Notes: a model not told the origin generated them from the letters alone. 60,826 nt of DNA from an uncultured Spirochaetales bacterium (GCA_964649065.1 CAZYOL010000004.1:1-60826); one strand, 5' to 3'. Shown: positions 2,690 through 48,185, numbered from the stretch's first letter. Program-made: numbers and translations.

Positions 2690-4876
2690 CTACGGGCCCG
2701 CCAGCGCCGCCCGGGTCGCCTGCAGCGAAGGGTCCGCGGGACGGCGCGCCAGGGCCGCGTCCAGCAGCTCGCGGGCGCGCTCGCTCTCCCCCAGCTCGTG
2801 CAGGGCCAGCACGTGGGCCAGCACGAAGCGCGGCTCGTCGGGGGCCTGCTCGGCGGCCACGCCCAGCTCGACCACCGCCCCCGCCAGGTCTCCCCGGCGC
2901 ACGAGCAGCAGGCCCAGGGCGTGGTGGAGGGCGGAGGTCGGCGTCGCCCGCGCGAGGCCCCGGCGCAGGATCTCCTCACCCTCGTCGTCGCGCCCCGCCT
3001 GCCGCAGCAGGTCGGCCAGGTTGGCGTAGGCCGGCGCGTAGCCCGGGTCGAGCTCGAGGGCGGTCTCGTAGGCCAGCGCCGCGGCCTGAATCGCCCCGGA
3101 CCGGGCGGCCAGCATCCCCAGGCCGAGCTGGGCCTCGGGCCGATCCGCGTGAGAGCGCAGGGAGCTCCGGAGCTCGGCCAGGCCGCGCTCCAGGGCCTCG
3201 CGCGCGGGCGGGGGCAGGGCCTCGCCCGGGAGGTCCGAGAGGGCCAGGGCCGCCTCCAGGCGCACGACCCTGCGCGCGTCTCCCAGCAGCGGGACGGCCT
3301 GCGCGAGCCGCGCGCGCGGCTCCAGCGCCCGGGAGGCCTCGGCGGCGGCCATGCGGACCAGGGGCGATGCGTCGCGCGCGCCGCGGCCGACGGCCCCGGC
3401 GAGCGACGGGCCTGCGAGCTCGCCGAGCAGCCGCAGCGCGGTGGCCCGGGCGATCGCCGGGGCAGACCGGTCGCGCAGCAGCCGACCGAGCTCGGTGTCG
3501 GAGCCTTCGCGGCGCTCGCGTCCGGCCGCGAGGGCCAGCCCGTAGTGGGGCGTCCCGAGGCGCTGGACTCCCCAGGCTTCCAGTGCGGCCGCCGCCCAGG
3601 GGGGGTCGCGGTCGGCGTGGCAGGCGGTGCAGGCATCGGTGGCCCCGGTCCGCTCGGCCAGGTCCGGACGCGGTACGCGAAAGCTGTGATCGTGGCGCTC
3701 GTCGATCCTCATGTAGGTGCGGCTCGGCATGTGGCAGGCGACGCAGCTCGCCCCGGCGGAGTCGACGGGGTGGCGGTGGTGATCGGGTGTCGCGAAGGCC
3801 TCGGCCCGATGGCAGCGCCCGCAGGTGGCGTCGGGCCCGTCCACCAGGGCCAGGGAGTGGGGATCGTGGCAGTCGCTGCAGCTCACGCCCTCGGCGTACA
3901 TGCGGCTCTGCAGGAAGGAGCCCCAGACGTAGACCTCGCCCCGGATCTGGCCATCGGCGAAGTAGAGGCCCGGGTCGAGCAGGGCAGGGCGGTAGTCGTC
4001 GAGGAACGCGACGCCGGGCGTGTGGGCGTCGCTCAGGGCGCTGCGTCTCGAGTGGCAGGGGGCGCAACGCTCCACCTCGCGCTGCTGCTCGCGGCGGGGC
4101 ACGCGTCGGGCAATGGCCTCGCCGGGGAGGAAGCGGAACTCGCCGGGCTCGCCGAGCGGGGCGCCCCAGCCCGTCGATCCGGGGCTCGGTGCTCGCGCCC
4201 ACTCGACGTGCCGGGAGCCCGGTCCGTGGCAGGCCTCACAGCCCACGTCGAGCTCCGCGAAGCGCGTCGAGTAGGTCCGCGTCGCGGCGTCGTACCGCTT
4301 CTCGAGCCGGGTCGAGTGGCAGTCGGCGCACATGTGGTTCCAGGTCTGGTCGACCCCGGCCCAGTGCAGGGCGTCGCCCGGCCGGGGCGGGTCGTCCGGG
4401 TAGAGGTGCAGCCAGCGCTGGCCTCCTCGCTCCGCCGGGCGCGCGTCCCAGGCCACGCCCAGGGCCTGCAGGCGACCGGATCCCGCGCGCAGCAGCAGCT
4501 GCTGCAGGGGGTCCACGCCGAAGACGTAGGCCACCTCGTAAGGCCGCGGCGCGCCGTCGGGCCCCGAGGCCTCGACGAGGTAGCGCCCAGCGCGGCGCAG
4601 GAAGCGCGTCCGCTCGTCTCCCTGGCTGTGCAGTCTGCCGTCGAAGGCGCCGAGCACGGTGTCCTCGCCGACCTCCTGCATGGCCAGGTCGTGGTGCGAG
4701 CCCCGCCACAGTGAGGCCTGCTGCGGGTGACAGTCGATGCACACGGGGCTTCCCACCAGGAGCGGGGCAGCGGCGATCGGCTCGTCCTCGACCGCCGGAG
4801 GAGCCGGCGGCTCGCCACAGGCCCCGAGCACGCCGAGGGCGAGCGGAACGAGAGCTGCGGCCCTACGCGGCGGCAC
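2690..4876 (-). CDS. Octaheme c-type cytochrome with HEAT and TPR repeats (lipoprotein)
   Basis: Eight CxxCH motifs (CIDCH, CADCH, CEACH, CAPCH, CSDCH, CGRCH, CVACH, CTACH); lipobox VLGAC; HEAT-like DASPLVRMAAA; TPRs (ALELDPGYAPAYANLA). Confidence 0.9.
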   Translation of the reverse strand: MPPRRAAALVPLALGVLGACGEPPAPPAVEDEPIAAAPLLVGSPVCIDCHPQQASLWRGSHHDLAMQEVGEDTVLGAFDGRLHSQGDERTRFLRRAGRYLVEASGPDGAPRPYEVAYVFGVDPLQQLLLRAGSGRLQALGVAWDARPAERGGQRWLHLYPDDPPRPGDALHWAGVDQTWNHMCADCHSTRLEKRYDAATRTYSTRFAELDVGCEACHGPGSRHVEWARAPSPGSTGWGAPLGEPGEFRFLPGEAIARRVPRREQQREVERCAPCHSRRSALSDAHTPGVAFLDDYRPALLDPGLYFADGQIRGEVYVWGSFLQSRMYAEGVSCSDCHDPHSLALVDGPDATCGRCHRAEAFATPDHHRHPVDSAGASCVACHMPSRTYMRIDERHDHSFRVPRPDLAERTGATDACTACHADRDPPWAAAALEAWGVQRLGTPHYGLALAAGRERREGSDTELGRLLRDRSAPAIARATALRLLGELAGPSLAGAVGRGARDASPLVRMAAAEASRALEPRARLAQAVPLLGDARRVVRLEAALALSDLPGEALPPPAREALERGLAELRSSLRSHADRPEAQLGLGMLAARSGAIQAAALAYETALELDPGYAPAYANLADLLRQAGRDDEGEEILRRGLARATPTSALHHALGLLLVRRGDLAGAVVELGVAAEQAPDEPRFVLAHVLALHELGESERARELLDAALARRPADPSLQATRAALAGP

Positions 4877-4922
4877 CTCCGCACTCTAGCCCCCCGATTC
4901 CCGGCGAGTGCCGCGCGCCCCT

Positions 4923-7898: not shown

Positions 7899-8888
7899 AT
7901 GCCCCAGGCCGAGACCCCGGAGATCCTGCGTTGGGAGACTCTCACGAAGAAGCGCTTCGACCGGATCGACCGCGATCGGGCCGTCGTCCTCGTGACCTGC
8001 TCGCCGCTCGAGGTCCACGGCCCCCACCTGCCGCTCGGAGCCGACGCCCTGGAGGGCGAGGGGCTGGCCGAGCGCGCGCTGCGCTTCCTCCCGGAGCGGC
8101 ATCGGGGTCGCCCCTTCCTGAAGCTGCCCTTCCTCTACACCGCGCCCGACCCCGTGCCCCAGGCGGGCTCGATCGCCTTCCGGCCCTCGACCACCCTGGC
8201 GGTGATCGAGGATCTGGGGCGCTCGCTGGCCGCCCAGGGCTTTCGCAACGTCTGGGTGTCGAACTTCCACGGCAGCCCACGCCACTTCCTGGCCATCGAG
8301 ACGGCCTGCGACCGCGTCTCGCGGGCTCACGACATCGCCATGGTCTGCGTCTTCTCGATGATGCTCTCGCGCCTGAACGGCGGCGGCTCGGAGCTGGGCG
8401 ACGTGCTGGGCCACCTGCCCGGGGTCGACAAGGAGGACTTCGCGGGCGACACCCACGGCGGCCTGGTCGAGACCGCACAGCTCCTGGCCCTGCACCCGGA
8501 GTGGATCGACCCCGACTACAAGGAGCTCCCGCGTCGCACCGTCGATCTCTGGCTCGAAGAGCAGGGCCGCAGCCGTCCCCAGGCCGAGCGCGGCAAGCTC
8601 GCGGCGCTCCCTCGGATGCTCGCCGCCTTCAAGGCCGGCATCCACTACTTCACCGAGGAGAGCTACGCGGGCTGGCCGGCCAAGGCCTCCGCGGAGCTGG
8701 GGGAGCAGATCCTCGACACCCTCGCGGCTCGCACCGCCGAGGTTGCGGCCCAGCTCCTCGACGGTCAGCTGCCCCCGGCCGAGTGGCACTCGCCGCTCTG
8801 GAAGCTGCGCCAGATCTTCGTGAATCCGGCGGCGGTGAAGATCGCGAACCGGCTGCTGGAGGTTCCCAAGACGGTGGGCGGCGTCTAG
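7899..8888 (+). CDS. Creatininase / creatinine amidohydrolase family protein
   Basis: LEVHGPHLPLGAD, SNFHG, DTHGGLVET metal-binding motifs; GGAGG RBS. Confidence 0.88.
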   Translation: MPQAETPEILRWETLTKKRFDRIDRDRAVVLVTCSPLEVHGPHLPLGADALEGEGLAERALRFLPERHRGRPFLKLPFLYTAPDPVPQAGSIAFRPSTTLAVIEDLGRSLAAQGFRNVWVSNFHGSPRHFLAIETACDRVSRAHDIAMVCVFSMMLSRLNGGGSELGDVLGHLPGVDKEDFAGDTHGGLVETAQLLALHPEWIDPDYKELPRRTVDLWLEEQGRSRPQAERGKLAALPRMLAAFKAGIHYFTEESYAGWPAKASAELGEQILDTLAARTAEVAAQLLDGQLPPAEWHSPLWKLRQIFVNPAAVKIANRLLEVPKTVGGV

Positions 8889-9274
8889 GCCCCGGGCGGC
8901 TCCACCCGGGCGGGCAGCGCCGTCGTCACCTCCGGGTCGACGTTCACGACGAAGCGGATGTCGTCCTCGGCGGCGAAGTTGCGGACCGCCTCCAGGAAGC
9001 GCGCGGCCTCTCCCTCCGGCGCCTCGACGCAGTCGAGCTCGATGATCACCCGATGGCCCGCGTAGTCCGGGTAGTCGCGCGCCAGCGCGCCGCTGGTGGC
9101 GTAGGCCAGGTAGGCGTTGAACTTCGCCTGCACCTCGGAGATCTGCTGGCGGCCGCCGCTCCAGGGCCGCTCCTCCAGCATCACCAGCACCACCTCGCCC
9201 CGCTCCGCGCTCGAGGTGATCAGGTCGACGACGTTCGGGTTGTCCACCCCGCGGCGGGGGAGCTCCTCGCTCAC
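8885..9274 (-). CDS. DUF6572-like protein
   Basis: VDNPNVVDLI...LVMLEERPW...QAKFNAYLAYATSG; GTG start overlaps the upstream TGA (GTGA coupling). Confidence 0.7.
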   Translation of the reverse strand: MSEELPRRGVDNPNVVDLITSSAERGEVVLVMLEERPWSGGRQQISEVQAKFNAYLAYATSGALARDYPDYAGHRVIIELDCVEAPEGEAARFLEAVRNFAAEDDIRFVVNVDPEVTTALPARVEPPGA

Positions 9275-10302
9275 GGGCGCAGGGCGGGGTGGTTCTGGCG
9301 CAGCCAGGCGATCGTGTCGGCCAGGGTCTCGCGGGCCGGCCGCGGGCGGTAGCCGAGCTCGCTCTCGGCGTAGAGCGAGCGCAGCCCCCACCAGTGCGTC
9401 GCCATCTCGACGACCACGGGGTCCGGCAGCAGGTGCAGGGGCTCCCCGCGCAGCCGGATGCCGAGCTGGGCCAGGCCCTGGGCCAGCCACCAGGCCACCG
9501 GGTACGGGAGGCGCAGCGGGGGGGGCGGGACCCCCGAGATCTCCGAGGCCAGGGCGAAGAAGTCACCGACGCTGCACTCGTGGCCGGGCAGGTGGTAGAC
9601 GGGTCGGGGTCGCGGGCTCTCCATGGCGCGCAGGATCGCGCGGCTCGCGTCGCGCACGTCGGCGAAGGCGATCCCGCCGTCGACCACGAAGGGAAGCCGG
9701 CGCCGCAGCAGCCGGATCAGGTGCCCAGAAGAGCGGAAGCGGTGATCGCCCGGGCCCAGCAGGACCGGCGGCCGCACGATCTGGAGCTGCACCCCGTGCT
9801 GCTCGGCCAGCTCGCGGGCCCGCCGCTCGGCCAGCAGCTTCGAGTGGTAGTAGGGCCAGCTCCGGATGGCCTCCTCGCAGGGAGGCGTCTCCTCGTCGGC
9901 GTGCTCCTCGCGGCGCCGGAAGCAGCCCACGGTCCCCGAGGTCGAGACGAAGACCACGCGCCAGCCCCGCTCCGCTGCGAGCCGGAGGATGCCGGCCGTT
10001 CCCTCGACGTTGCTGCGGTAGACCGACTCCACGTCGTGGCGCGAGTGCTTCACCTCGGCCGCCAGGTGGAAGACGCCCCGCACCTCGGCCAGCCGCGGAT
10101 CCCCGGCGAAGGCCCGTGGATCCAGCAGCTCGCCGTGCAGCAGCTCCACCCGCTCGAGCTTGTGCGTCCAGTCGTGACGGGACCAGGCGTTGGGCTCGCG
10201 CACCAGGGCCAGGGCCCGCCGGGGCACCTCGTCGGCCTGCAGCGCGTGGAGCAGGTGCCGGCCCAGGAAGCCGCTCGCGCCGGTGACGAGGTAGGTCGTC
10301 AC
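9271..10302 (-). CDS. Extended SDR / NAD-dependent epimerase-dehydratase
   Basis: TGASGFLG Rossmann motif, VFHLAA, YYHSK (YxxxK), RPPVLLGPGD. Confidence 0.9.
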   Translation of the reverse strand: MTTYLVTGASGFLGRHLLHALQADEVPRRALALVREPNAWSRHDWTHKLERVELLHGELLDPRAFAGDPRLAEVRGVFHLAAEVKHSRHDVESVYRSNVEGTAGILRLAAERGWRVVFVSTSGTVGCFRRREEHADEETPPCEEAIRSWPYYHSKLLAERRARELAEQHGVQLQIVRPPVLLGPGDHRFRSSGHLIRLLRRRLPFVVDGGIAFADVRDASRAILRAMESPRPRPVYHLPGHECSVGDFFALASEISGVPPPPLRLPYPVAWWLAQGLAQLGIRLRGEPLHLLPDPVVVEMATHWWGLRSLYAESELGYRPRPARETLADTIAWLRQNHPALRP

Positions 10303-12135
10303 TCAGGCGACTCCCTGGTTCGATCCCCCGAAGACGTTGCCCGGGTCGACGCTGCGCTTCAGCTCCGCCGTCCACTCGCGTGCGGTCGGCGAGAAGATCC
10401 GGGGCAGGAAGCCCTGGCGCAGCTTTCCGATGCCGTGGTGGTGGGAGAGGGAGCCGTCGCAGCGCAGGATCTCGTCGCGGGCGCAGCGCTCCAGCTCCGC
10501 GTAGACCCGGTTCGGCTCCTCGACGCCCTTGTGGTAGAAGGCGAAGTAGAAGTAGACGCAGACTCCGGTGTCGTATACCTGTGTCACTCGACAGGTGACG
10601 AAGGGCCCGCCCGGGAGGCCGCGCTCCGCGTACTCCCGATGGATCCGCTGCTTCACCTTCTGGCAGAGCTCGAGGGCCCGATCCCAGGGCACCGAGGTCT
10701 CGAAGGACTCGGCGAGCACATGGTGCTTCATCACGAAGTCGCGGATGTAGGCGATTCCGTAGGTGAGCTGGTAGCCGCGCTTGCCGTTCTCGGCACCCGC
10801 GCGCATGCCCCCGTGGCGCTTGGCGATGCGCTGGGCCGCCGACTCCTGGGCGCGCACCTCCTCGGCCGAGCCCTCGAAGACCAGCGTGCAGGCGACCATG
10901 CGATCCGCCTCGAAGCCGCGCAGCCGCGTCACGTAGAGCTTCTCGAGCCGGTGGAGCAGGGCCTTCCAGCCCTGGCGGCGCGGCTTCAGCGTCTGGGAGA
11001 GCTGGAACTGCAGGTTGTCGACGAGGCGCACGCTGGCGGGTACCGCGCCCTCCCGCGTCAGCTCGTACATGAAGGCGACGCCCTGCTCGAAGCTCGGGAA
11101 GAGGATCGCGTCGTAGCGCTGGACCTCGGGCAGGGGGAAGATCTTGACGATGGCCTGGGTCACGATGCCGAGGTTGCCCTCGGAGCCGAAGATCCAGCGC
11201 CGCACGTCCGATCCCACCGATTCGCGGGGAGCAACGGCGGGTCGCGACAGCTCGCCCTTCGGCGTCGCCACCGTCACGTCGAGCACGAGGTCCTCGATGT
11301 TGCCGTAGCGGTTCTTCTTCATCCCGCTGGCGTGGGTTGCGATCCAGCCGCCGAGCGTCGAGAACTCGATCGAATCGGGCTCGTGGCCCATGGTGAAGCC
11401 GTGCTCGGCCAGCTGCTCGGCGATGTGGCGCCCCACGGCGCCCGCCTCGATGCAGGCCATCCGGTTGGTCGGGTCGATCCACAGGATGCGGTTCAGCCGC
11501 GAGAGATCGACCGAGGCGATCATGCGCTCCTCGCCGGCCGGACAGCGAAGGGCCTCGGTGACGTTGGTTCCGCCGCCGTAGGGAATGAGGCAGACGTCGT
11601 GGCGCGCGGCGGCCTCGACCAGGGCCTGGACGTGCTGCGCCCGGCTGGGGTAGAGGACCAGGTCCGGCACCCGTTCCAGCGCGCCGTACTTGATCTCGTA
11701 CATCTCGTCCTGGGTGTGGCCGTGCCCGTGGCGCAGCCGCACGGCCGGCTCGCTGCAGATCGCATCCTCCTGCAGCACCTTGCGAACCTCGTCGAGGAAG
11801 CCGGCGTTGCTGCGGGGCTCGGGGATCTGCGGCGGATAGCTGGACTCGTGGGTGTCGGTGGGGTCGAGGTGGACGCCCAGGATGCCCTCGGTCCAGGGCA
11901 GCAGGTCGGGCAGCTCGGCTCCGCACAGCGGGTAGCGATCGCCGGTGAGGATCACGCTTCCGTTCGGCAGAACCCGGAAGCCGGTGTCGCGGAAGCCCCA
12001 GACGTCGAGGCTCTCGACGTCCTGCTCCCGCCGCGGCGGATCCCCGGGAACGATCCGTTCCGGGGCTCGCCCCTCGGTGAGATCCCGGCCGCTCGGCGTC
12101 GGCTCGCGGCTCGACCTCGCTGCTCCCATCGCCAT
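10303..12135 (-). CDS. agpS: Alkyl-dihydroxyacetonephosphate synthase-like FAD oxidoreductase (eukaryote-like AGPS)
   Basis: WGFRDTGF...LTGDRYPL, HGHT, IPYGGGTNV, GHEPDSIEFSTLGGWIATHASGMKKNRYGNIEDLV, ESFETSVPWD, CRVTQVYDTGVCVYFYFAF, SLSHHHGIGKLR; GGAGG RBS before ATG 12135. Confidence 0.88.
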   Translation of the reverse strand: MAMGAARSSREPTPSGRDLTEGRAPERIVPGDPPRREQDVESLDVWGFRDTGFRVLPNGSVILTGDRYPLCGAELPDLLPWTEGILGVHLDPTDTHESSYPPQIPEPRSNAGFLDEVRKVLQEDAICSEPAVRLRHGHGHTQDEMYEIKYGALERVPDLVLYPSRAQHVQALVEAAARHDVCLIPYGGGTNVTEALRCPAGEERMIASVDLSRLNRILWIDPTNRMACIEAGAVGRHIAEQLAEHGFTMGHEPDSIEFSTLGGWIATHASGMKKNRYGNIEDLVLDVTVATPKGELSRPAVAPRESVGSDVRRWIFGSEGNLGIVTQAIVKIFPLPEVQRYDAILFPSFEQGVAFMYELTREGAVPASVRLVDNLQFQLSQTLKPRRQGWKALLHRLEKLYVTRLRGFEADRMVACTLVFEGSAEEVRAQESAAQRIAKRHGGMRAGAENGKRGYQLTYGIAYIRDFVMKHHVLAESFETSVPWDRALELCQKVKQRIHREYAERGLPGGPFVTCRVTQVYDTGVCVYFYFAFYHKGVEEPNRVYAELERCARDEILRCDGSLSHHHGIGKLRQGFLPRIFSPTAREWTAELKRSVDPGNVFGGSNQGVA

Positions 12136-12286
12136 CGTGCTCCCCTCCGTCCCGCACGTCGAGACCCGGGGCCCGATCGGCTCGTCGATCGCGCTCGGGG
12201 ACCGCTCGTGCTCGCGGCGGACCCCCGCGGGTACGCCGTTCGCCCAACAGTACCGCAAACCCCGGCGTCGCCGACGTCTCCGGGAG

Positions 12287-13255
12287 TCATCCCGCGGCCG
12301 GGCTCGGCCGGGCCGGCTCCGCCCAGGTCGGCGCAGGCGCCGGGCTCCGGCTCGGGATCCAGCGCTCCTCGAGGAAGCGCTCCACCGCGCAGACGATCGC
12401 CTCGGGGTACTCGAGCAGCCCGAAGTGGGTGGCGCCGGGCAACACCTCCAGGCGGGCATCCGGGAGCGTGCGGGCCAGCTCGCGGGTCACGGCCAGCGGG
12501 GTGAAGGGATCGGCGTCGCCGGCGATCACGAGCGCCGGGACCGACAGGCGAGAGGCCACGTCCCAGGCGTCGTGGGCCCCGAGCTGCGAGAAGATCTCGG
12601 CGTAGATCCCCAGGTGCAGGGCCATCCACTCCTCGGCCATCCGCTGGAAGCGCCGTTCGTCGAGGCTGGGAGCCATCATGCCGAGCCGCCTGCACAGGCC
12701 CACGAAGGCGCTCATGACGGCGGGTCGCCGGGTCAGCCAGGGCCCCAGCGTCTGGATTCGATCCCCCACGCGGCGCAGGCCGGCCAGCACGTAGGGCGAG
12801 ATGCGCGCGCTGAGGGCCGAGTCGAAGGCCGTCTCGAGGGGCCGGCCCGCGGTGCCGTGCAGGGCCACCAGTCCCGAGGAGGCGTCCGGCCAGGTGCGGT
12901 GCAGCTCGAGCGCCACCTGAACCCCCATGCTCCAGCCGATCAGCACCGGCCTGCGCAGGCCCGCGCGCTCGATCAGCGTTCGCAGGTCGGCCGCGTGGTC
13001 GATCAGCTCGTAGCGCCCCTCGCACGGGGCCGGACCGGAGCGGTAGAGGCCTCGGTAGTCCCAGCTCAAGATCCGATGGCGCGAAGCCAGGGCGCGGAAG
13101 AGCGGTCTCCACACCCCGACGCCGCCGCCGAGGCCGCCGCACAGCACGATCGGCGGCGCGTCGCGTGGGCCCGCCGCGTAGCAGGCCAGACGCGTGCCGT
13201 CGTAGGCCCGTAGCCGCCTTCGCACCACGCGCGTCGACGCGCTTCGCGTGGACAA
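12287..13255 (-). CDS. Alpha/beta fold hydrolase
   Basis: WDYRGLYRS, GWSMG nucleophile elbow, GDADPFTP, ATHF; start uncertain. Confidence 0.88.
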   Translation of the reverse strand: MSTRSASTRVVRRRLRAYDGTRLACYAAGPRDAPPIVLCGGLGGGVGVWRPLFRALASRHRILSWDYRGLYRSGPAPCEGRYELIDHAADLRTLIERAGLRRPVLIGWSMGVQVALELHRTWPDASSGLVALHGTAGRPLETAFDSALSARISPYVLAGLRRVGDRIQTLGPWLTRRPAVMSAFVGLCRRLGMMAPSLDERRFQRMAEEWMALHLGIYAEIFSQLGAHDAWDVASRLSVPALVIAGDADPFTPLAVTRELARTLPDARLEVLPGATHFGLLEYPEAIVCAVERFLEERWIPSRSPAPAPTWAEPARPSPAAG

Positions 13256-13306
13256 GAGCCGATCCCCCCCAGGATCCGGCCAGCTTACCGAAGCCCGCGA
13301 TTCCGC

Positions 13307-13333
13307 CTCAATCGCGGTGCGCGGCGGGCCGAT
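13307..13333 (+). promoter_or_regulatory. sigma28/FliA-like promoter
   Basis: CTCAAT-N15-GCCGAT, 10 nt before ATG 13344. Confidence 0.6.
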
Positions 13334-13343
13334 GGCGCAGCCG

Positions 13344-14741
13344 ATGGACCCCGTTCGGAGCGCGTGGGATGTGCGGCAGCTCCGGAAGCGCTTCGAGCCG
13401 CAGCGCGGGGACGGGCGGGAGCTGGCGCTGCGCCTGCTCGTCCTGAGCCTGCTGCTGCCGCTGCTGGGGCCGGCGCTGCTGCTGGGGCTGCTGGGGCTGG
13501 CGGTCCATCGCTGGGCGCAGGCGATCTCCGGGCGCGCCCCCGGCCACGCCCGGCCTCACGAGAGCGCACTGCGCGTCGTGCGGGATCGACTCGAGGAGGG
13601 CCAGGCGGATCTCGACGCCGAGCACTTCCTCGAGCGGGTGCGACGGGCCGTCGAGCGATTCGCCGAGGCCTGGTCTCGCCAGCAGCCCGGGCCGGTGGCT
13701 CCCTTCGTCTCCGACGGGCTGCACGAGCAGCTCCGCCTGCGCTTCGACGAGCAGCGCGCCCTGGGGCTGCGGGAGGAGCCTCTCGACCTGGTGGTGGAGC
13801 GGATCGGCATCGCACGGGTGCGCAGCGAGGGACGCTTCGACGTGCTGGCCGTCGGCCTCGACGTCGCGGGCCACTGGGTCCAGTACTCGCTCGCGAGCGG
13901 CGCCGAGCTGGGACGCCGGCCGGCCGGGGAGGCCGGGCTCTCGGGCTTCTGGACCTTCATCCGTCGGCGCGGCGCCAAGTCGCGCAGCGGACCGGGGCTG
14001 ATCGAGGGCTGCTGCCCCAACTGCTCGGCCCCGATCGAGCTGGTCCGTCACGCCCGTTGCCCGGCCTGTTCCGCGTGGCTGCGGAGCGGTCAGCACGACT
14101 GGGTGCTCGCCGAGATCACCGACCCGCGGTCCTGGAAGCCCAGGCCGTCGTGCCGGGCACCGGGCGTCGCGGCCTATCGCGAGCGGGATCCCGAGCTCAG
14201 CGTGCAGCACCTGGAGGACCGGGCTGCCGTGCTCTTCTGGCGCCAACGCGCGGCGGAGCGGGTCGGGGGCCTCGGGCCCCTGCGGCGCGCTCTGGGGGCC
14301 GAGCTGGGCGAGCGGCTGGGCGCGTGCGTGGCCCGCGACGGCCGCGAGCTGCGCCTGCGGGCACGGGTGCGCGACGTCGAGACCCTGGCGGTGGCGCAGG
14401 GGGAGGTCTGGGACCGCGCGGCCGTGGCCGTCGACTGGAGCGCCGAGCTCCACCGCGTCGGAGCGGACGGGGCCATCGGCCCTTCCCTCGGACCCTGCCG
14501 CGGCCGCGAGCTCTTCCTGCTCGCCCGTCGCGCGGGCCTGCTGACCCCGGACGGGCTGGACGTCTCCTCCGCTCACTGCAGCTCCTGCGGGGCGCCGGAC
14601 GACGCCGGCAGCGAGCTCGGCTGCCGCTACTGCGGCGCCGCCCGGGACGGCGGCTCGGGGGACTGGCTGCTCGCGGGCCTCTACGATCTCGCCACGCCGG
14701 AGGCCCGCGCCGCTCTCGCCGAGGTCGGGGCCCCGCGCTGA
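13344..14741 (+). CDS. Membrane protein with tandem Tim44-like domains and zinc ribbons
   Basis: TM segment; FLERVRRAVERFAEAW...FWTFIR; CPNC/CPAC and CSSC/CRYC pairs, each followed by DWVL/DWLL. ATG 13332 falls inside the -10 element, so 13344 is preferred. Confidence 0.75.
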   Translation: MDPVRSAWDVRQLRKRFEPQRGDGRELALRLLVLSLLLPLLGPALLLGLLGLAVHRWAQAISGRAPGHARPHESALRVVRDRLEEGQADLDAEHFLERVRRAVERFAEAWSRQQPGPVAPFVSDGLHEQLRLRFDEQRALGLREEPLDLVVERIGIARVRSEGRFDVLAVGLDVAGHWVQYSLASGAELGRRPAGEAGLSGFWTFIRRRGAKSRSGPGLIEGCCPNCSAPIELVRHARCPACSAWLRSGQHDWVLAEITDPRSWKPRPSCRAPGVAAYRERDPELSVQHLEDRAAVLFWRQRAAERVGGLGPLRRALGAELGERLGACVARDGRELRLRARVRDVETLAVAQGEVWDRAAVAVDWSAELHRVGADGAIGPSLGPCRGRELFLLARRAGLLTPDGLDVSSAHCSSCGAPDDAGSELGCRYCGAARDGGSGDWLLAGLYDLATPEARAALAEVGAPR

Positions 14742-14762: not shown

Positions 14763-17700
14763 ATGGGGGCGAAGCTGCTCCGCTCGGCGGGCGCCGCCGC
14801 GCGGATCGGTCGCGCGCGGCAGTGGCTCGTGAGCCGAGCCGCGGGAGAGGAGGTGCTGGTGCTGGCCGCCAGCGCCCGGGCCGCCTCCGAGCTGCTGCGG
14901 AGCGCCGCGCTGGAGCGAGGCGCCGGCTTCGGCTGGCACCGGGCGACGCTGTCCTCGCTGGCCCGGGAGCTGGCCACGCCGGCCCTGGTGGAGCGGCAGC
15001 TGGCGCCGGTCGGCGGGCTGGCCGCCGAGGCCGTGGTGGCGCGGGTGGTCGATCGGCTCCGGGAGCGGGATCGGCTGGGGCGCTACGCCGCCGTGGCCAA
15101 CGGTCCCGGCCTGGCCCGGGCGCTGCTGCGCTCGCTGCAGGAGCTGCGCTTCGCGCGCGTCGACCGGGTCGAGCTGGCGGCGGTCGACCCGGAGCTGGCC
15201 GCACTGGCCGATGCCTACGGCGCAGGGCTGGCCGAGGCGGGCCTCGCGGATCGAGCGGCGGTCTACGAGCTGGCCGTCGAGGTCGGAGCCGACGCATCCG
15301 TGCGTCACCCCTGGCTCGGTCTGCCCAGCCTGCTGCTCGACGTGCCGGTCGAGACGGAGCTGGAGGCGGCGCTGCTCGGGGCGCTGGTCCGGCGCGCGCC
15401 GGAGCTGCTGGCGACGCTGCCGCGCGGCGACGAGGCCAGCGAGCAGCGGCTCGTCGAGCTGCTCGGCGCCGAGCCGGAGTGCCTGGACGGCGCGGCCGCG
15501 GGCTCGCTGGAGCGGCTGCAGCGCCACGTCTTCGAGTCGGCCCCGGCCCCCGCGGAGGCCGACGACCGGGTGGTCGTGCTCTCCGCCCCGGGCGAGAGCC
15601 GCGAGTGCGTGGAGATCGCGCGCCGCGCCCTGCACCTGGCCGAGTCGGGAGTGCCCTTCGACCGCATGGCGGTGCTGCTGCGCTCGGTCGAGGAGTACCG
15701 GGCGCACCTGGAGGAGGCCTTCGGCCGGGCCGGCGTTCCGCTGCTCTTCGAGCGCGGCGCGTTGCGGCCCGAGCCGGCCGGCCGCGCCTTCGCCTCGCTG
15801 CTGGCCTGCGCGGCGGAGAACCTCTCGGCGCGGCGCTTCGCCGAGTACCTGTCGCTGGGCGAGCTGCCGGACGCGACGCCCGACGGGGCGCCGCCGCCGT
15901 CGCTGACGGCTGCCGAGCGCTGGGTCGCGCCCGACGAGGAGCTGGTGACCGCTGCGGTGGCCGAGGCTCTGGGCGAGCGCCTCGTTCCGGAGTCGACGGC
16001 CTCCACCGACCCGGAAGAGCGCTCCGTGCGGGAGGGCAGCCTGCGGGCGCCCCGGCGCTGGGAGGCGCTGCTGGTGGACGCGGCGGTGATCGGGGGCAGC
16101 GAGCGCTGGCAGCAGCGGCTGGACGGCCTGGCCCGTCAGCTCGAGCTCGACCTGGCCGAGCTCGAGGATCCGGAGTCGGCAAAGGCCGAGGCGCTGCGGC
16201 GGGCCTGCCGCGACCTGGCATCGTTGCGCGACTACGCGCTGCCGCTGATTGCGGATCTGGTGGCACTGCCGCGGCGGGCGACCTGGGGCCGCTGGCTCGA
16301 CGCGCTGGCCGCGCTGGCGACCCGAGGCCTCAGGCGGCCCGAGCGCGTGCTCGCCGTGCTCGCCGAGCTCGCCCCGATGGCCGGCGTCGGCGAGGTCGAC
16401 CTGGCGGAGGTGAGGGCGGTGCTGACGCCGCGGCTGGTGGCGGCGGCCGCGCCGCCGCCGCGCCGCCGCGCCGGCCAGGGCTACGCGGGGCCGGCAGAGA
16501 CGGCGCGCGGCTTGGCCTTCGACGTGGTCTTCGTGCCCGGTCTCGCCGAGCGGCTCTTCCCGCGCAGGATCGAGGAGGACCCGATCCTGCTCGACGAGAC
16601 CCGGCGCCGCCTCCACCCGGCCCTCCCGACGCGTCCCCAGCGGGTGGCCCACGAGCGCCGGATCCTGCGCCTGGCCGTCGGCGCGGCGGGCAGCCAGCTG
16701 GTGCTCTCCTATCCGCGCCTCGACCTCGACCAGGGCCGGCCGCGGGTGCCCTCCTTCTACGGCCTGGAGGTGCTGCGCGCCGTCGAGGGGCGGCTGCCGG
16801 GCTTCGACGAGCTCCAGCGACGAGCCGAGCGGGTCGGCGACGCCCGGGTCGGCTGGCCCGCCCCGCGGCGTCCGACCGACGCCATCGACCAGGCCGAGCA
16901 CGACCTGGCGCTGCTCGACGGGCTGCTCGACCGCGACGAGGAGAAGAGCGTGGGCACGGCGCGCTATCTCCTCGGCGCGAATCCACACCTCGGCCGGGCG
17001 CTGCGCTTCCGCGGCCGGCGCTGGCGCGGGGGCTGGACCGTCGCCGACGGCATCGTGCGGCCCTCGGCGGCCGCCCGCCGGGCGCTGCGCAGGCACGCCC
17101 TGGCCGAGCGCAGCTACTCGCCCACGGCCCTGCAGCACTACGCCGCCTGTCCCTACCGTTTCTTTCTGCAGGCCGTGCTGCGGCTGGCTCCGCGAGAGGT
17201 GCCCGTGGCCCTCGAGGACGTCGACCCGCTGACCCGCGGCAGCCTGGTGCACGACGTGCAGTTCCGGCTGCTCACTCGGCTGCGCGAGGAGGGCCTGCTG
17301 CCGGTGCGGGCGGAGAATCTCGCCCGCGCCCGCGAGCTCCTCGACGAGATCCTCACCCGGGAGGCCGAGCGCTACCGCGACGATCTCGCCCCCGCCATCG
17401 AGCGGGTGTGGCTGGACGCCGTCGACTCGATCCAGGCGGACCTGCGCGAGTGGCTGCGGCGCGCGAGCCTGGACGAGTCGGGCTTCGTGCCCTGGCGCTT
17501 CGAGCTGGCCTTCGGCCTCTCCGGGCGTCGCGAACGCGACGCGCGCTCGACGCGCGAGGCGGTGCGCCTCGCCTGCGGGCTGCGGCTTCGCGGCTCGGTG
17601 GATCTGGTCGAGCGGCGCGACGGCGGGACCCTGCGCGTCACGGACCACAAGACCGGCAAGAGCCGGGTCTCGCCCGGTGCCGTGATCGCCGGCGGCGAAG

Positions 17701-18029
17701 CCCTGCAGCCGGTGCTCTACGCCCTGGCCGCCGAGCAGCTCGAGCCCGGGGCCCGGGTGGAGTCCGGGCGGCTCTACTACTGCACGTCGGCCGGCGGCTT
17801 CGACGAGGTCTCGGTGCCCCTCGACGATGCTGCGCGGCGCAGCGCCGAGGTGCTCGCAGCCACCGTGGGCCGCGCGCTGGAAGAGCCCTTCCTGCCGGCT
17901 GCGCCGGCGCGCGGCGCCTGCCGCTTCTGCGACTACGTCTCCGTGTGTGGGCCCTCGGAGGAGACGCGCACGGCGCGCAAGTCGCCCCGCGAGCTGGCGC
18001 CCCTGCGGGCCCTGCGAGAGCTGCCGTGA
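14763..18029 (+). CDS. addB: AddB-like helicase-nuclease subunit (PD-(D/E)XK nuclease with Fe-S staple)
   Basis: Degenerate helicase fold; YSPTALQHYAACPYRFF, LRGSVDLVE...VTDHKTG, LQPVLYAL, CRFCDYVSVC. Confidence 0.85.
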   Translation: MGAKLLRSAGAAARIGRARQWLVSRAAGEEVLVLAASARAASELLRSAALERGAGFGWHRATLSSLARELATPALVERQLAPVGGLAAEAVVARVVDRLRERDRLGRYAAVANGPGLARALLRSLQELRFARVDRVELAAVDPELAALADAYGAGLAEAGLADRAAVYELAVEVGADASVRHPWLGLPSLLLDVPVETELEAALLGALVRRAPELLATLPRGDEASEQRLVELLGAEPECLDGAAAGSLERLQRHVFESAPAPAEADDRVVVLSAPGESRECVEIARRALHLAESGVPFDRMAVLLRSVEEYRAHLEEAFGRAGVPLLFERGALRPEPAGRAFASLLACAAENLSARRFAEYLSLGELPDATPDGAPPPSLTAAERWVAPDEELVTAAVAEALGERLVPESTASTDPEERSVREGSLRAPRRWEALLVDAAVIGGSERWQQRLDGLARQLELDLAELEDPESAKAEALRRACRDLASLRDYALPLIADLVALPRRATWGRWLDALAALATRGLRRPERVLAVLAELAPMAGVGEVDLAEVRAVLTPRLVAAAAPPPRRRAGQGYAGPAETARGLAFDVVFVPGLAERLFPRRIEEDPILLDETRRRLHPALPTRPQRVAHERRILRLAVGAAGSQLVLSYPRLDLDQGRPRVPSFYGLEVLRAVEGRLPGFDELQRRAERVGDARVGWPAPRRPTDAIDQAEHDLALLDGLLDRDEEKSVGTARYLLGANPHLGRALRFRGRRWRGGWTVADGIVRPSAAARRALRRHALAERSYSPTALQHYAACPYRFFLQAVLRLAPREVPVALEDVDPLTRGSLVHDVQFRLLTRLREEGLLPVRAENLARARELLDEILTREAERYRDDLAPAIERVWLDAVDSIQADLREWLRRASLDESGFVPWRFELAFGLSGRRERDARSTREAVRLACGLRLRGSVDLVERRDGGTLRVTDHKTGKSRVSPGAVIAGGEALQPVLYALAAEQLEPGARVESGRLYYCTSAGGFDEVSVPLDDAARRSAEVLAATVGRALEEPFLPAAPARGACRFCDYVSVCGPSEETRTARKSPRELAPLRALRELP

Positions 18030-21000
18030 CGGCTCCTCTTCCCGACGCGGTGGCCCGCCGCCGGATCGAGAGCGAGCACGAGGCGAGCTTCTTCGTCGAG
18101 GCGGCGGCGGGCACCGGCAAGACCACGGCCCTGGTCGGCCGCATCGTCTCGCTGCTGCGGGCCGGCGGCGCCGAGCTGGAGGGCATCGCCGCCCTCACCT
18201 TCACCGAGAAGGCCGCCGGCGAGATGAAGCTGCGGCTGCGGGCCCGCATCGAGCAGGCCCGCTCCGAGAGCAGCGCGTCGCAGCAGGAGCGGCGGCGTCT
18301 GGACCGCGCCCTGCAGCAGCTCGAGCTGGCGCGCATCGGCACCATCCACGCCTTCTGCGCCGATCTCCTGCGCGAGCGCCCGGTCGAGGCGGGCGTGGAC
18401 CCCCTCTTCGAGGTCGCGGCCGAGGAGGAGGCCGAGGAGCTGCTGGAGGCCGCCTTCGAGGACTGGTTCCAGCGGGTACTGGCCGACCCTCCGGAGGGGG
18501 TGCGCCGGGTGCTGCGGCGGCGCGGCCAGGGGCCGGCCGGGGCGGGGCCCCGCGAGCAGCTGCGGCGCGCCGTCGCGAGCCTGGTCGAGCATCGCGACTT
18601 CGCGGCGCCCTGGCGACGGAGCCCCTTCGATCGCGAAGCGGCCATCGATGCGCTGTGGCGGGAGCTGCGCGAGCTGGGCCCGCTGGCCCGGCGGGCCGCG
18701 AGCCCGAGAGACTGGCTGGCGCGCAGCTTCGAGGCAATCGGACGCTTCGTCGAGGAGGTGGAGCTGCTGGAGGCGGTTCGCGAGGGACGCCGCGACTACG
18801 ACGGCCTCGAGGCCCGCCTGCGCGACTTCGCGAGCGGTCGCCAGCGGCACTGGCGTTGGACCGGGGGGCAACGCCCCTACGCGAAGGGGCTGCCGCGCCA
18901 GGCGCTCTTGGCCCGTCGCGATGCCGCGCGGGCCGCGCTGCAGGAGCTGCTCGAGCGCTCCGCCGCGGATCTGGCCCCGCTGCTGCAGCGCGAGCTGCAG
19001 CCGGTGCTCGAGGCCTACCGCGAGCGCAAGCGGCGTGCCGGGCGACTCGACTTCGTGGACCTGCTGCTCGCGGTGCGCGACCTGATCGTGCAGCGGCCGG
19101 AGGTGCGCCGCGACTTCCAGCGCCGCACCAGCCACTTCTTCGTCGACGAGTTCCAGGACACGGACCCGCTGCAGGCCGAGATCCTGCTGCTGCTGGCGGC
19201 AGACGACCCGGAGGAGACCGACTGGCTGCGCGCCCAGCCGGTGCCGGGCAAGCTCTTCGTGGTCGGGGACCCCAAGCAGTCGATCTATCGCTTTCGACGG
19301 GCCGACGTGGCGATCTACGAGGAGACCAAGCGCCGCCTGGTCGAGCGCGGCGCCGAGACCCTGCAGCTCTCCGCCAGCTTCCGCGCGCTTCCCTCCCTGC
19401 AGCAGGCCATCAATGCCGCCTTCGAGCCCGCCATGGACGAGGCCTCACCCGGGATCCAGGCCCGCTACGTCCCCCTGGAGCCGGTGCGCGCCGAGGCGAC
19501 GGGTCGCCCCTCGCTGGTGGCCCTCCCGGTCCCGCGGCCCTACGGCGACTACGGGAGCGTGGTCCAGTGGCGGATCGAGGACTCGGCGCCCGACGCCATC
19601 GCGGCCTACGTGGACTGGCTGGTGCGCGAGAGCGGCTGGAGCGTCGAAGACCCGGAGCGGCCGGGCCGGTCGGTGGCGCTGGCGCCGCGCCATGTGTGCC
19701 TGCTCTTCCGGCGCTTCCGCAGCTTCGAGACCGACGTGACGCGCCTCTATGTCCGGGGCCTGGAGGCGCGCGGGATTCCGCACGTGCTGGTGGGCGGCCG
19801 CTCCTTCCACGACCGCGAGGAGGTGCTGGCCCTGCGCAACGCCCTGGTCGCCATCGAGTGGCCCGACGATGCGCTGCGCGTCTACGCGACGCTGCGCGGA
19901 CCGCTCTTCGCGCTCGGAGACGACGCGCTGCTCGCCTACCGGGAGCGCTTCGGGAGCCTGCATCCGCTGCGCCCGCGCGGGGAGGCGACCCTGGAGGACT
20001 CGGAGGTCGAGGTGGCCGAGGCCCTGGACGTCCTGGCCGAGCTGCACCGCCAGCGCAATCGCCGGCCGGCGGCCGCCACCCTGGGCGCCCTGCTCGAGGC
20101 GGTGCGGGCCCATGCGGGCATCGCCATCTGGCCCACCGGGGAGCAGGCCCTGGCCAACTGCCTGCGCAGCCTCGACCTCGCGCGGCGCTTCGAGCGGCGG
20201 GGCGCCACCTCCTTTCGCGCCTTCGTCGAGCGGGTCGAGGCCGATGCCGAGCGGGGCGAGGCGCGGGATGCACCGGTCGTGGAGGAGGGCACCGAGGGCG
20301 TGCGCATCATGACCGCGCACCGGGCCAAGGGCCTCGAGTTCCCGGTCGTCGTGCTGGCGGACCCGACGGCCATGCTCACGGGTCGCGAGCCCACCCGACA
20401 CGTCGATGTGGGAGCCCGGCTGTGGGCCGAGCCCCTGTGCGGCTGCGTTCCCGTCGAGCTGCGCGAGGCGCAGGAAGAGGAGCGCGCCCGCGACGCGGCC
20501 GAGTCGGTGCGCCTGGCCTACGTCGCGGCCACGCGCGCGCGGGAGCTGCTGGTGGTCCCGGTGCTCGGCGACGGCTGCCAGCCCCTCGAGGATCGCTGGC
20601 AGCGTCCGCTCCTCGCCGCCGTCTACCCGGAGCCGCGGGCCCGGCGCGAGGCCGGGCCCGCACCGGGCTGTCCGGACTTCGGTCAGGACAGCGTGCTCGA
20701 GCGACCCGACGCCGCTGGCAAGGGGGCCTCGGCCTCGGTGGCGCCCGGCCTGCATCGCTCGCGCGCCGGCACTCCCGTGGTCTGGTGGGACCCGGCGCAG
20801 CTCTCCCTCGGCATCGAGGCCCGCGTTGGGCTGCGCCAGGAGCGCATCCTACACGCCGACGAGTCGGGTACGAATGCGGAGAGCGGCGAGCGCGCCCACG
20901 AAGCCTGGCAGGCGCGACGCCTGGGGGCGCTGGAATCGGGCCTGCGCGCTTCGCTGGAGGTGCATCCGGTGACGACCCTGGCGGAGCAGCGCCCGCCGGA

Positions 21001-21496
21001 CCCGGAGCCGCCGGTCCTCGTCGAGTCGACCGACCGCGACCGCTCCCGGCGTCCCGGAGGGCGCCGCTTCGGCAGCCTGGTGCACGCCGTGCTGGCGGTC
21101 GTCGACTTGCGCGACGCGCCCGCTCGCATCCGGGCGGCGGCCGAGGCGCAGGGTCGGCTGCTGGGCTGCCCGGAGGAGGAGGTGGCCGCGGCGGCCGAGG
21201 CGGTGGAGGCGGCCCTGGAGCACCCGCTGCTGGTCCGGGCCGCGCGCAGCGACGCCCTGCGTCGCGAGACGCCGGTGCTGCTGCGGCTGCCCGACGGTGC
21301 GCTCGGCGAGGGGGTGGTCGACCTGGCCTTCCGCGAGCCCGACGTCGATCCGCCCCACTGGACCGTCGTCGACTTCAAGACCGATCGCGAGCTGGCCGCG
21401 CGGCGCCCGGTCTACGAGTCCCAGGTGCAGCTCTACGCCCGAGCCGTGCAGGCGGCGACGGGCGAGCCCTGTCGCGGAGCCCTCTTGGTGCTCTGA
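18026..21496 (+). CDS. addA: AddA-like UvrD helicase-nuclease
   Basis: GTG start overlapping the addB stop; EAAAGTGKT, LTFTEKAAGEM, TIHAF, VDEFQDT, VGDPKQSIYRFRRAD, MTAHRAKGLEFP, YVAATRAR; C-terminal VDL...VVDFKT...QVQLY. Confidence 0.92.
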   Translation: MTAPLPDAVARRRIESEHEASFFVEAAAGTGKTTALVGRIVSLLRAGGAELEGIAALTFTEKAAGEMKLRLRARIEQARSESSASQQERRRLDRALQQLELARIGTIHAFCADLLRERPVEAGVDPLFEVAAEEEAEELLEAAFEDWFQRVLADPPEGVRRVLRRRGQGPAGAGPREQLRRAVASLVEHRDFAAPWRRSPFDREAAIDALWRELRELGPLARRAASPRDWLARSFEAIGRFVEEVELLEAVREGRRDYDGLEARLRDFASGRQRHWRWTGGQRPYAKGLPRQALLARRDAARAALQELLERSAADLAPLLQRELQPVLEAYRERKRRAGRLDFVDLLLAVRDLIVQRPEVRRDFQRRTSHFFVDEFQDTDPLQAEILLLLAADDPEETDWLRAQPVPGKLFVVGDPKQSIYRFRRADVAIYEETKRRLVERGAETLQLSASFRALPSLQQAINAAFEPAMDEASPGIQARYVPLEPVRAEATGRPSLVALPVPRPYGDYGSVVQWRIEDSAPDAIAAYVDWLVRESGWSVEDPERPGRSVALAPRHVCLLFRRFRSFETDVTRLYVRGLEARGIPHVLVGGRSFHDREEVLALRNALVAIEWPDDALRVYATLRGPLFALGDDALLAYRERFGSLHPLRPRGEATLEDSEVEVAEALDVLAELHRQRNRRPAAATLGALLEAVRAHAGIAIWPTGEQALANCLRSLDLARRFERRGATSFRAFVERVEADAERGEARDAPVVEEGTEGVRIMTAHRAKGLEFPVVVLADPTAMLTGREPTRHVDVGARLWAEPLCGCVPVELREAQEEERARDAAESVRLAYVAATRARELLVVPVLGDGCQPLEDRWQRPLLAAVYPEPRARREAGPAPGCPDFGQDSVLERPDAAGKGASASVAPGLHRSRAGTPVVWWDPAQLSLGIEARVGLRQERILHADESGTNAESGERAHEAWQARRLGALESGLRASLEVHPVTTLAEQRPPDPEPPVLVESTDRDRSRRPGGRRFGSLVHAVLAVVDLRDAPARIRAAAEAQGRLLGCPEEEVAAAAEAVEAALEHPLLVRAARSDALRRETPVLLRLPDGALGEGVVDLAFREPDVDPPHWTVVDFKTDRELAARRPVYESQVQLYARAVQAATGEPCRGALLVL

Positions 21497-21554
21497 TGGG
21501 CGCCCGAGGGAGCGGCGCACGGCGCACGCTCTCCCGGCACCTATACTCATTCTC

Positions 21555-47970: not shown

Positions 47971-48185
47971 CGGCCGCTAGAGTACAACGTCGACTCGCGA
48001 GGTCCGGGCCCGCTTCGGGCCGGCCTCGATCGCGTCGATCCCCGGGTCGGCGGGCTGGTCTCCCCGGAAGCTCCAGGCGTAGAGATCCATGGCCTCGGCT
48101 GCCGGGATGGTCCATCGTCCGAGGGCAGCGGCGATCCGCGCGGTGCTCGCGGGCCCGGCAGCGGCTCGGGCGAGGGGACGGGGCT

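Follow-up and report, generated by a model that had tools for sequence, protein, structure and literature searches.

Do an alkyl-dihydroxyacetonephosphate synthase (AGPS) gene and the gene for an extended short-chain dehydrogenase/reductase (SDR) that directly abuts it make up an ether-lipid pathway, and, if so, from where would the other enzymes of the pathway come? The question is raised by a 60,826-nucleotide stretch of DNA from an uncultured Spirochaetales bacterium (GCA_964649065.1, CAZYOL010000004.1:1-60826), the whole of which is termed the window here, and in which a first-pass annotation had described a group of co-oriented genes as the operon of a bacterial ether-lipid pathway. The best explanation overall, and one that we hold with good confidence, is that the locus is a shortened aerobic ether-lipid operon, in which AGPS is coupled to the SDR and the fatty acyl reductase (FAR) and acyltransferase functions are supplied from elsewhere in the genome. 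The four genes of the cluster were all found on the minus strand at the positions that had been predicted for them, and the region reads as follows:

12287-13255, minus strand: alpha/beta hydrolase, 322 aa (PF00561, 89 bits)
10303-12135, minus strand: AGPS-like FAD enzyme (EC 2.5.1.26), 610 aa, with its ATG at 12135 (PF01565, 116 bits; PF02913, 141 bits)
9271-10302, minus strand: extended SDR of the NAD-dependent epimerase/dehydratase family, 343 aa (PF01370, 100 bits; PF07993, 76 bits)
8885-9274, minus strand: DUF6572 gene (PF20212, 59 bits)
7899-8888, strand opposite to the cluster: creatininase-family gene, converging on the cluster from the left
13248-14741: gene with a weak Tim44-like match, diverging at the right of the cluster

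The 610-aa flavoenzyme is, as judged from its sequence, an AGPS orthologue and not a GlcD-like paralogue, and the exchange activity of AGPS is predicted for it. Its best match among solved structures is guinea-pig peroxisomal AGPS (4bby_A; 589 bits, E 7e-176), with residues 29-606 aligned on 79-656 and identity at about 261 of the 578 aligned positions (~45%, from a hand count of the alignment midline); Dictyostelium AGPS (2uuu) reached 300 bits in the solved-structure search. The best chain that is not an AGPS, a glycolate oxidase, scored 85 bits in an alignment starting at residue 112, and the NCBIfam GlcD models were far under their cut-off (144 bits against 568). The collinearity with 4bby takes in the N-terminal region that GlcD-like oxidases lack; the FAD-binding PCMH-type domain PF01565 occupies residues 157-296 and the FAD-linked oxidase C-terminal domain PF02913 residues 335-602. 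The blocks nearly identical to animal AGPS that had been listed from end to end of the protein are all present in the translation, and each aligns to the corresponding guinea-pig block (LTGDRYPL, the GHEPDS...GNIEDLV block, PASVRLVDNLQFQ, NGKRGYQLTYGIAYIRD, ESFETSVPWDR, CRVTQVYDTGVCVYFYFAF and SHHHG). With positions counted along the alignment, Arg419, Tyr578 and His615-617 (guinea-pig numbering) are all matched by identical residues, and chain 4bca departs from 4bby at Tyr578 in the same alignment. Arg419 and Tyr578 are residues that we take, from the structural literature, to be catalytic; His616 and His617 are termed active-site residues of AGPS in PMC13019191. The start that gives 610 aa agrees with the lengths of the homologues, which are ~600-620 aa at 95-99% coverage.

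Proteins of this kind are numerous among bacteria. Of 8000 candidates scored, 5782 had E <= 1e-50, the best of them other than the protein itself being 77% identical, and many homologues at ~70% identity carry the name 'alkyldihydroxyacetonephosphate synthase' given by JGI. In contigs taken from one genome per species, 566 of 597 candidate stretches encode an AGPS relative, and the titles of the 80 best loci name Gemmatimonadota, Myxococcota, 'delta proteobacteria', Acidobacteriota, Gammaproteobacteria (including Woeseiaceae), Spirochaetota, Actinomycetota, Nitrospirota, Bacteroidota and Sericytochromatia. In a tree of these proteins, the ingroup of 88 rows, which includes seven labelled eukaryotic AGPS, was split from an outgroup of 31-35% identity with the full support of the Shimodaira–Hasegawa-like approximate likelihood ratio test (SH-aLRT 100). 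The earlier judgement that the window protein is closer to AGPS than to GlcD-like enzymes therefore stands, given the 589 versus 85 bits and a place inside the AGPS ingroup rather than with generic oxidases.

What accompanies AGPS in other bacteria was surveyed in these 80 best loci (59-72% identity) of the 566 relatives. A protein in which a FAR domain is fused to an acyltransferase domain (FARAT) is frequently the next gene, and the layouts were distributed as follows:

AGPS-FARAT-SDR: 32 of 80 loci
AGPS-FARAT, with the SDR absent within 6 kb: 9 of 80
AGPS-FARAT, with a flank too short to judge: 3 of 80
AGPS-FAR without an acyltransferase domain: 1 of 80 (L068)
FAR truncated by the contig end: 1 of 80
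AGPS-SDR directly adjacent, as in the window: 1 of 80 (L029)
AGPS with none of these partners downstream: 22 of 80
downstream DNA shorter than 1.5 kb: 11 of 80

The commonest layout is AGPS-FARAT-SDR, and it is found in the closest titled relative (L001, 72% identity), where a gene of ~790 aa with PF07993 (207 bits) and PF01553 (76 bits), that is to say a FARAT, lies between AGPS and the SDR. In L068, AGPS is followed by a FAR of 422 aa that has PF07993 only and whose gene overlaps the AGPS stop. The 12 AGPS loci of genomes related to that of the window comprise three with AGPS-FARAT-SDR, three with AGPS and a FAR without the acyltransferase domain, five without any partner downstream and one that is too short. 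The operon described in Myxococcus xanthus has the commonest order: MXAN_1676 (AGPS), MXAN_1675 (FAR plus acyltransferase) and MXAN_1674 (NAD-dependent epimerase/dehydratase family); ether-lipid synthesis by this branch is blocked when MXAN_1676 is deleted, and the third gene, MXAN_1674, is given no role in the available parts of the two papers (PMC13012113, PMC9131029).

In the window, no FARAT gene lies directly downstream of AGPS, since the start of the SDR abuts the AGPS stop. The locus is thus a shortened copy, in a rare gene order, of the known M. xanthus-type ether-lipid operon, from which the middle FARAT gene has gone. It follows that the description of the operon as an ether-lipid pathway in itself does not hold, the cluster being incomplete for want of the FAR-acyltransferase gene between AGPS and the SDR. 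The resemblance to MXAN_1676-1675-1674, drawn from gene content and Pfam families, nevertheless extends to AGPS in first place, an extended SDR in last place, a common orientation and tight packing, and also to FAR and CarF/PEDS1 as partners elsewhere in the genome and, probably, to the phylum of the host; the differences are the absence of the middle FARAT and a FAR that is separate, on another contig.

The junction itself was read directly. The TGA of AGPS is followed by the GTG of the SDR with zero spacer, as the first-pass annotation had it, and AGGGAG lies 8 nt upstream of the GTG. In three runs (X1, X2 and X3, of which X1 is possibly the source of this DNA), independently assembled contigs span this junction, so that the direct abutment is not an artefact of one assembly; reads cover every bin for all four runs examined. 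Upstream of AGPS, 151 nt separate the stop of the hydrolase gene from the ATG at 12135, which is preceded by the ribosome-binding site GGAGGGGA. A scan of 8500-13700 for promoters and terminators gave zero sites of either kind, which is uninformative at 74% GC.

An important question is therefore where the missing functions could be encoded. The source assembly (5.03 Mb, 509 contigs, 94.6% complete, 4.8% contaminated, with the window as contig C4) was searched with the FARAT of L001 as query. A stand-alone FAR of ~440 aa was found on the 3.7-kb contig C328, with 49% identity over the FAR domain and 202 bits for PF07993, and it ends in a stop without an acyltransferase domain; it is the one strong FAR among 15 matches to PF07993 in the genome. 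In the source assembly, no protein was found that has both a FAR-type domain (PF07993) and an acyltransferase domain (PF01553). The search for a GNPAT/PlsB-like gene, which the first-pass annotation had suggested, yielded two proteins of PlsB/GPAT type, both with PF01553 and PF19277, one of 895 aa on C128 and a second on C74, cut by the contig end, with 266 bits for PF19277; it did not yield a dedicated dihydroxyacetone phosphate (DHAP) acyltransferase. On C33 there is a homologue of CarF/PEDS1 (Lipid_desat, PF10520, 151 bits) with a predicted desaturase activity. A multidomain enzyme resembling ElbD was also considered, and the candidates, two long PF01553 frames on C49 and C73, were set aside since they have no other Pfam domain.

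Several other genes of lipid or regulatory type were noted. On C328 (locus L202; 3220-3627 and 854-1324, both minus strand), a gene fragment that is truncated at the contig end and encodes the C-terminal part of a LuxC-type acyl-CoA reductase converges on the FAR, and an Rrf2-type regulator lies upstream of the FAR on the opposite strand. In the window, a WS/DGAT wax-ester synthase/diacylglycerol acyltransferase (46537-47976, minus strand; PF03007, 163 bits, and PF06974) adjoins a PlsC-type acyltransferase (44875-46050, plus strand; PF01553, 60 bits), some 33 kb from AGPS. Since WS/DGAT also consumes fatty alcohols, the FAR of the source genome may feed two pathways.

Co-occurrence was followed in 41 related genomes, including the source genome. 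AGPS orthologues are present in 13 (57-67% identity in the relatives, the next-best proteins being paralogues at <=33%). FAR is present in at least 11 genomes, all of them AGPS-positive, a count that is a floor, the first look having been stricter; in four related genomes, as in the source genome, it is on a different contig from AGPS. CarF is present in 17 genomes: 10 of the 13 that have AGPS and 7 of the 28 that lack it.

The SDR is a recurrent companion of AGPS. Orthologues of 43-61% identity are in the AGPS cluster of 33 of the 80 best loci, in third position in 32 and in second position in L029, and the SDR was found in 4 of the 41 genomes, all AGPS-positive and always with the SDR gene inside the AGPS cluster. 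In an alignment of 34 AGPS-linked SDRs, 69 positions are invariant or close to it: T7-G8-x-x-G11-F12-x-G14 (TGxxGFxG), S120/T121/S122 and Y151/Y152-x-x-K155 are invariant or conserved in all but one sequence, and Arg35 after the second strand and several basic residues are also near-invariant. With its glycine motif, Ser/Thr and YxxxK kept, the SDR looks catalytically competent. Among solved structures, it is closest to a putative oxidoreductase (117 bits) and to dihydroflavonol or cinnamoyl-CoA reductases, and the thioester-reductase model TIGR01746 gives 88 bits against a cut-off of 213. Two orthologues are irregular: the one in L054 (10201-11173) was matched as two pieces in different frames, and the one in G030 (C5:107076-108092) contains a single in-frame TGA; either may be a copy that is frameshifted or broken, or the irregularity may come from errors of sequencing.

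What, then, does this SDR reduce? Because it occurs only with AGPS, and usually behind a gene that already provides a FAR domain, it would act after AGPS, and the conversion of alkyl-DHAP into alkyl-glycerol-3-phosphate would be its step because this is the sole reductive step left without an enzyme there. From its gene context, the SDR is most likely an alkyl-DHAP reductase. Of the earlier proposal that it supplies a reductive step of the pathway, the partnership with AGPS is supported (33 of 80 loci, and all four of the genomes with the SDR) and the function itself is plausible.

A pathway may be put together as follows, in which we infer the enzymatic activities, the substrate of the SDR and the source of acyl-DHAP from the gene identities, the junctions, the conservation of catalytic residues, the gene-order statistics and the co-occurrence. 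The FAR-acyltransferase gene would have been lost from between AGPS and the SDR. Fatty alcohol would come from the stand-alone FAR on C328 and acyl-DHAP from an acyltransferase encoded elsewhere, for which the PlsB/GPAT-type paralogues on C128 and C74 are candidates. AGPS would then exchange the acyl chain of 1-acyl-DHAP for the fatty alcohol to give 1-O-alkyl-DHAP, and the SDR, apparently translationally coupled to AGPS, would yield 1-O-alkyl-glycerol-3-phosphate by an NAD(P)H-dependent reduction of alkyl-DHAP at its C2 keto group. The CarF/PEDS1 homologue on C33 could convert the plasmanyl product into a plasmalogen.

Several observations weigh against this scheme. The SDR is not obligatory: nine loci have AGPS-FARAT without an SDR within 6 kb, 22 have AGPS without downstream partners, and the SDR is found in just 3 of the 12 AGPS-positive relatives. 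Its orthology to MXAN_1674 is a matter of position and Pfam family alone. As for acyl-DHAP, a PlsB-like protein is present in 38 of the 41 genomes regardless of AGPS and so looks like a housekeeping protein, the second PlsB paralogue is also common in AGPS-negative relatives, and the source assembly, as noted, revealed no dedicated DHAP acyltransferase. The assembly is fragmented (94.6% complete, 509 contigs), and a FARAT copy could lie in unassembled DNA; the 3.7-kb contig with the FAR could also be mis-binned.

In an alternative explanation, the SDR would take the other of the two roles suggested in the first-pass annotation and be an additional reductase, acting on fatty acyl-CoA or fatty aldehyde, that helps to supply AGPS with its alcohol substrate. 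Its matches to PF07993 (Male sterility/NAD_binding_4, 76 bits) and, below the cut-off, to TIGR01746 (88 bits) leave such an acyl or aldehyde reductase role some room, and the gene comes directly after AGPS, where the FAR domain is usually found. However, in 32 of the 80 best loci, the SDR coexists with a full FAR domain (PF07993 at ~207 bits), which would make a second alcohol-forming reductase in the same cluster redundant; moreover, its best solved relatives are reductases of keto or enoyl type, and the source genome already has a FAR of its own, so this alternative is unlikely. A still less probable explanation, for which we see little room, is that the AGPS-SDR pair is a remnant, the pathway having become idle after the loss of FARAT or the enzyme having drifted to another substrate. 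The loss of the fusion from the cluster, its absence from the assembly and the failure of the search for a dedicated DHAP acyltransferase there would all be expected of a remnant, but neither gene is broken, the catalytic residues are conserved and the third-position GC (0.91-0.96) is like that of other window genes; layouts without the acyltransferase recur (in L068, in three related genomes as AGPS-FAR and in another four where FAR is unlinked), and FAR and CarF co-occur with AGPS. A shortened but working operon, with the SDR as the alkyl-DHAP reductase, accounts better for these observations.

Another question raised by the resemblance to animal AGPS is that of ancestry, since the first-pass annotation had proposed this clade as the sister or donor of eukaryotic AGPS. 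A tree of 94 rows was made with IQ-TREE (LG+C20+F+G4, quick search, SH-aLRT only) from the window protein, 55 bacterial loci, 32 cluster representatives and six outgroup rows (31-35% identity). Among the representatives, seven were labelled eukaryotic, three were bacterial by source name, two with JGI names were treated as bacterial and the rest were unlabelled; the tree is to be read as the product of a short search with several long branches, an outgroup whose identity is not established and one labelled animal. The labelled nematode, heterolobosean, oomycete, Chromera and Eimeria rows lie, without resolution, at the base of the ingroup and outside a clade of 80 rows (SH-aLRT 98), which itself consists of an MMETSP-eukaryote group, a Poribacteria/Neomarinimicrobiota group and a clade of 61 rows (98). 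The MMETSP eukaryote is outside the 61-row clade and groups with the C-terminal AGPS domains of giant proteins. A crown of 58 rows (95) with zero labelled eukaryotes is nested in the 61-row clade, and within this crown the window protein belongs to a subclade of 18 rows (97), mostly labelled Gemmatimonadota and Woeseiaceae, as a weak sister (81) to L068. As it is nested deep in a bacterial crown, the window lineage is not specially close to eukaryotes.

The idea of this lineage as sister or donor can therefore hardly be maintained, and we consider it highly improbable. In its favour are the strong similarity to metazoan AGPS (589 bits, above the 300 bits of Dictyostelium AGPS) and a published proposal, in a PNAS study of 2026 (PMC13012113), that the eukaryotic plasmalogen pathway originated from Myxococcota, which was drawn from trees of PEDS1 and FARAT. 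Against it are the four successively nested clades just described, with the labelled eukaryotes outside the 58-row crown, and the fact that an equal similarity is common to hundreds of bacterial homologues under at least eight phylum labels; in the same study, moreover, the AGPS sequences were uninformative, having, according to its authors, insufficient phylogenetic signal.

Four relatives of the same family (G007, G011, G013 and G022) are in a different subclade of nine rows (96) from that of the window AGPS, a separation given by SH-aLRT values from the quick search alone. Thus AGPS seems, from these sequences, to have moved among bacterial lineages or to have been sorted from several copies. 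A tree of FAR domains (57 rows, LG+G4, quick search) places the FAR of the source genome beside that of L068, at the base of a mostly Gemmatimonadota-labelled group. This mirrors the AGPS tree and supports the idea that the unlinked FAR and the window AGPS share an origin and that the acyltransferase domain was lost in that lineage. Many of the cluster representatives are proteins of 2100-2700 aa with the AGPS-like part at the C-terminus (P0136, P0137, P0140-P0142, P0146, P0148, P0154, P0156 and others), and P0136 and P0137 group with shorter fusions and the MMETSP eukaryote; they may be protist mega-fusions of the whole initiation pathway of ether-lipid synthesis, or concatenated gene calls.

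The eukaryotic acyl/alkyl-DHAP reductases (EC 1.1.1.101) are PexRAP/DHRS7B and, in yeast, Ayr1, which are classical SDRs and which perform the step proposed here for the window SDR, namely the reduction of alkyl-DHAP at its C2 keto group with NADPH. Should the function prove to be shared, the window SDR, being of the extended epimerase/dehydratase type, would be analogous and not orthologous to them. Guinea-pig AGPS (4bby, 4bc7 and 4bca) shares with the window protein 578 collinear residues, including the N-terminal AGPS-specific region, at the ~45% identity given above, together with the catalytic residues; the bacterial protein differs in lacking ~50 N-terminal residues of the precursor, in its setting in a bacterial cytoplasm or membrane and in partner enzymes that are encoded differently. 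Other bacterial routes to alkyl or alkenyl glycerolipids, namely the ElbD pathway (elbA-E) of M. xanthus, the anaerobic PlsA/PlsR and Ger (PMC13159169), are without AGPS, unlike the window.

Since AGPS-dependent ether-lipid synthesis in bacteria and its link to the animal pathway have already been described, a shortened operon adds one more member. Its interest lies in a naturally minimal arrangement, AGPS and the SDR being the only genes left coupled, which sharpens the candidacy of the known operon's third gene as the missing alkyl-DHAP reductase. A bolder proposal, which is possible and which we offer tentatively, is that the SDR that travels with AGPS (the MXAN_1674 type) is the bacterial 1-alkyl-DHAP reductase, analogous to PexRAP/Ayr1, that the bare pair displays the core hand-off from product to substrate, and that the lineage of the source genome and L068 split FAR from the acyltransferase independently, as holozoans did, and now uses a paralogue of PlsB/GNPAT type for acyl-DHAP. 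As the source genome and several of its relatives show, bacteria can split or lose the FAR-acyltransferase fusion, a point relevant to the interpretation of the separate FAR and GNPAT genes of animals and to the source of acyl-DHAP in such bacteria.

The two other genes of the cluster had also been brought into the proposed pathway. The co-oriented hydrolase is where it was said to be, upstream of AGPS, but it does not appear to be a member of the pathway: it matches no NCBIfam model at cut-off, and an orthologue is beside AGPS in one of the 80 best loci only (L063, 53% identity, opposite strand). Orthologues are present in 4 of the 41 genomes, all AGPS-positive, and are unlinked to AGPS in the three relatives. 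In these three relatives and L063, the neighbours of the orthologue (amidase, DsbA, a GGDEF regulator, peroxiredoxin, a LysR regulator, a NUDIX protein, a CoA ligase and others) have no lipid theme. The hydrolase is thus weakly associated with AGPS at best. In L063 (4568-5434 and 9073-10428, both minus strand), a second FAD oxidase, with the fold of AGPS and 30% identity to it, lies ~4.6 kb downstream of AGPS.

The coupling of the DUF6572 gene to the SDR was confirmed by direct reading, with the GTG of the DUF6572 frame overlapping the TGA of the SDR in GTGA (9274-9271); membership of the pathway was not, since DUF6572 is present in 24 of the 41 genomes irrespective of AGPS, on other contigs, and is never beside AGPS in the loci examined. 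It is a gene of the lineage and not a conserved partner of AGPS. An insertion of AGPS-SDR was looked for by means of the neighbours of DUF6572 in eight relatives, where none of the window's flanking genes was near it; as these neighbours are not shared, there is no backbone for the comparison. The DUF6572 and creatininase-family genes converge with overlapping stop codons (the reading frames end at 8885 and 8888), and there is consequently no room for an intergenic terminator.

As regards the host, a RecA fragment of 213 aa has its best matches, at 73-77%, in metagenome-assembled genomes titled Anaeromyxobacter, Myxococcales, Archangiaceae and Desulfuromonadales, which is weakly consistent with a Myxococcota host; the organism is probably a myxobacterium. 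Of rpoB, only a fragment of 48 residues is assembled in the source genome. Taken in 2-kb bins, the G+C content of the window is 65-78%, and most bins exceed 69%. Elsewhere in the window, and unrelated to the AGPS cluster, there are genes for a multihaem cytochrome c with TPR repeats (731 aa; 2690-4885, minus strand) and for a cytochrome P450 (26067-27386, minus strand). A second extended SDR (21297-22559, plus strand; PF01370, 102 bits; PF07993, 55 bits) stands ahead of a radical SAM gene (22592-23995, plus strand), and an AddB/AddA-like pair (14763-21558) lies just upstream of this SDR.

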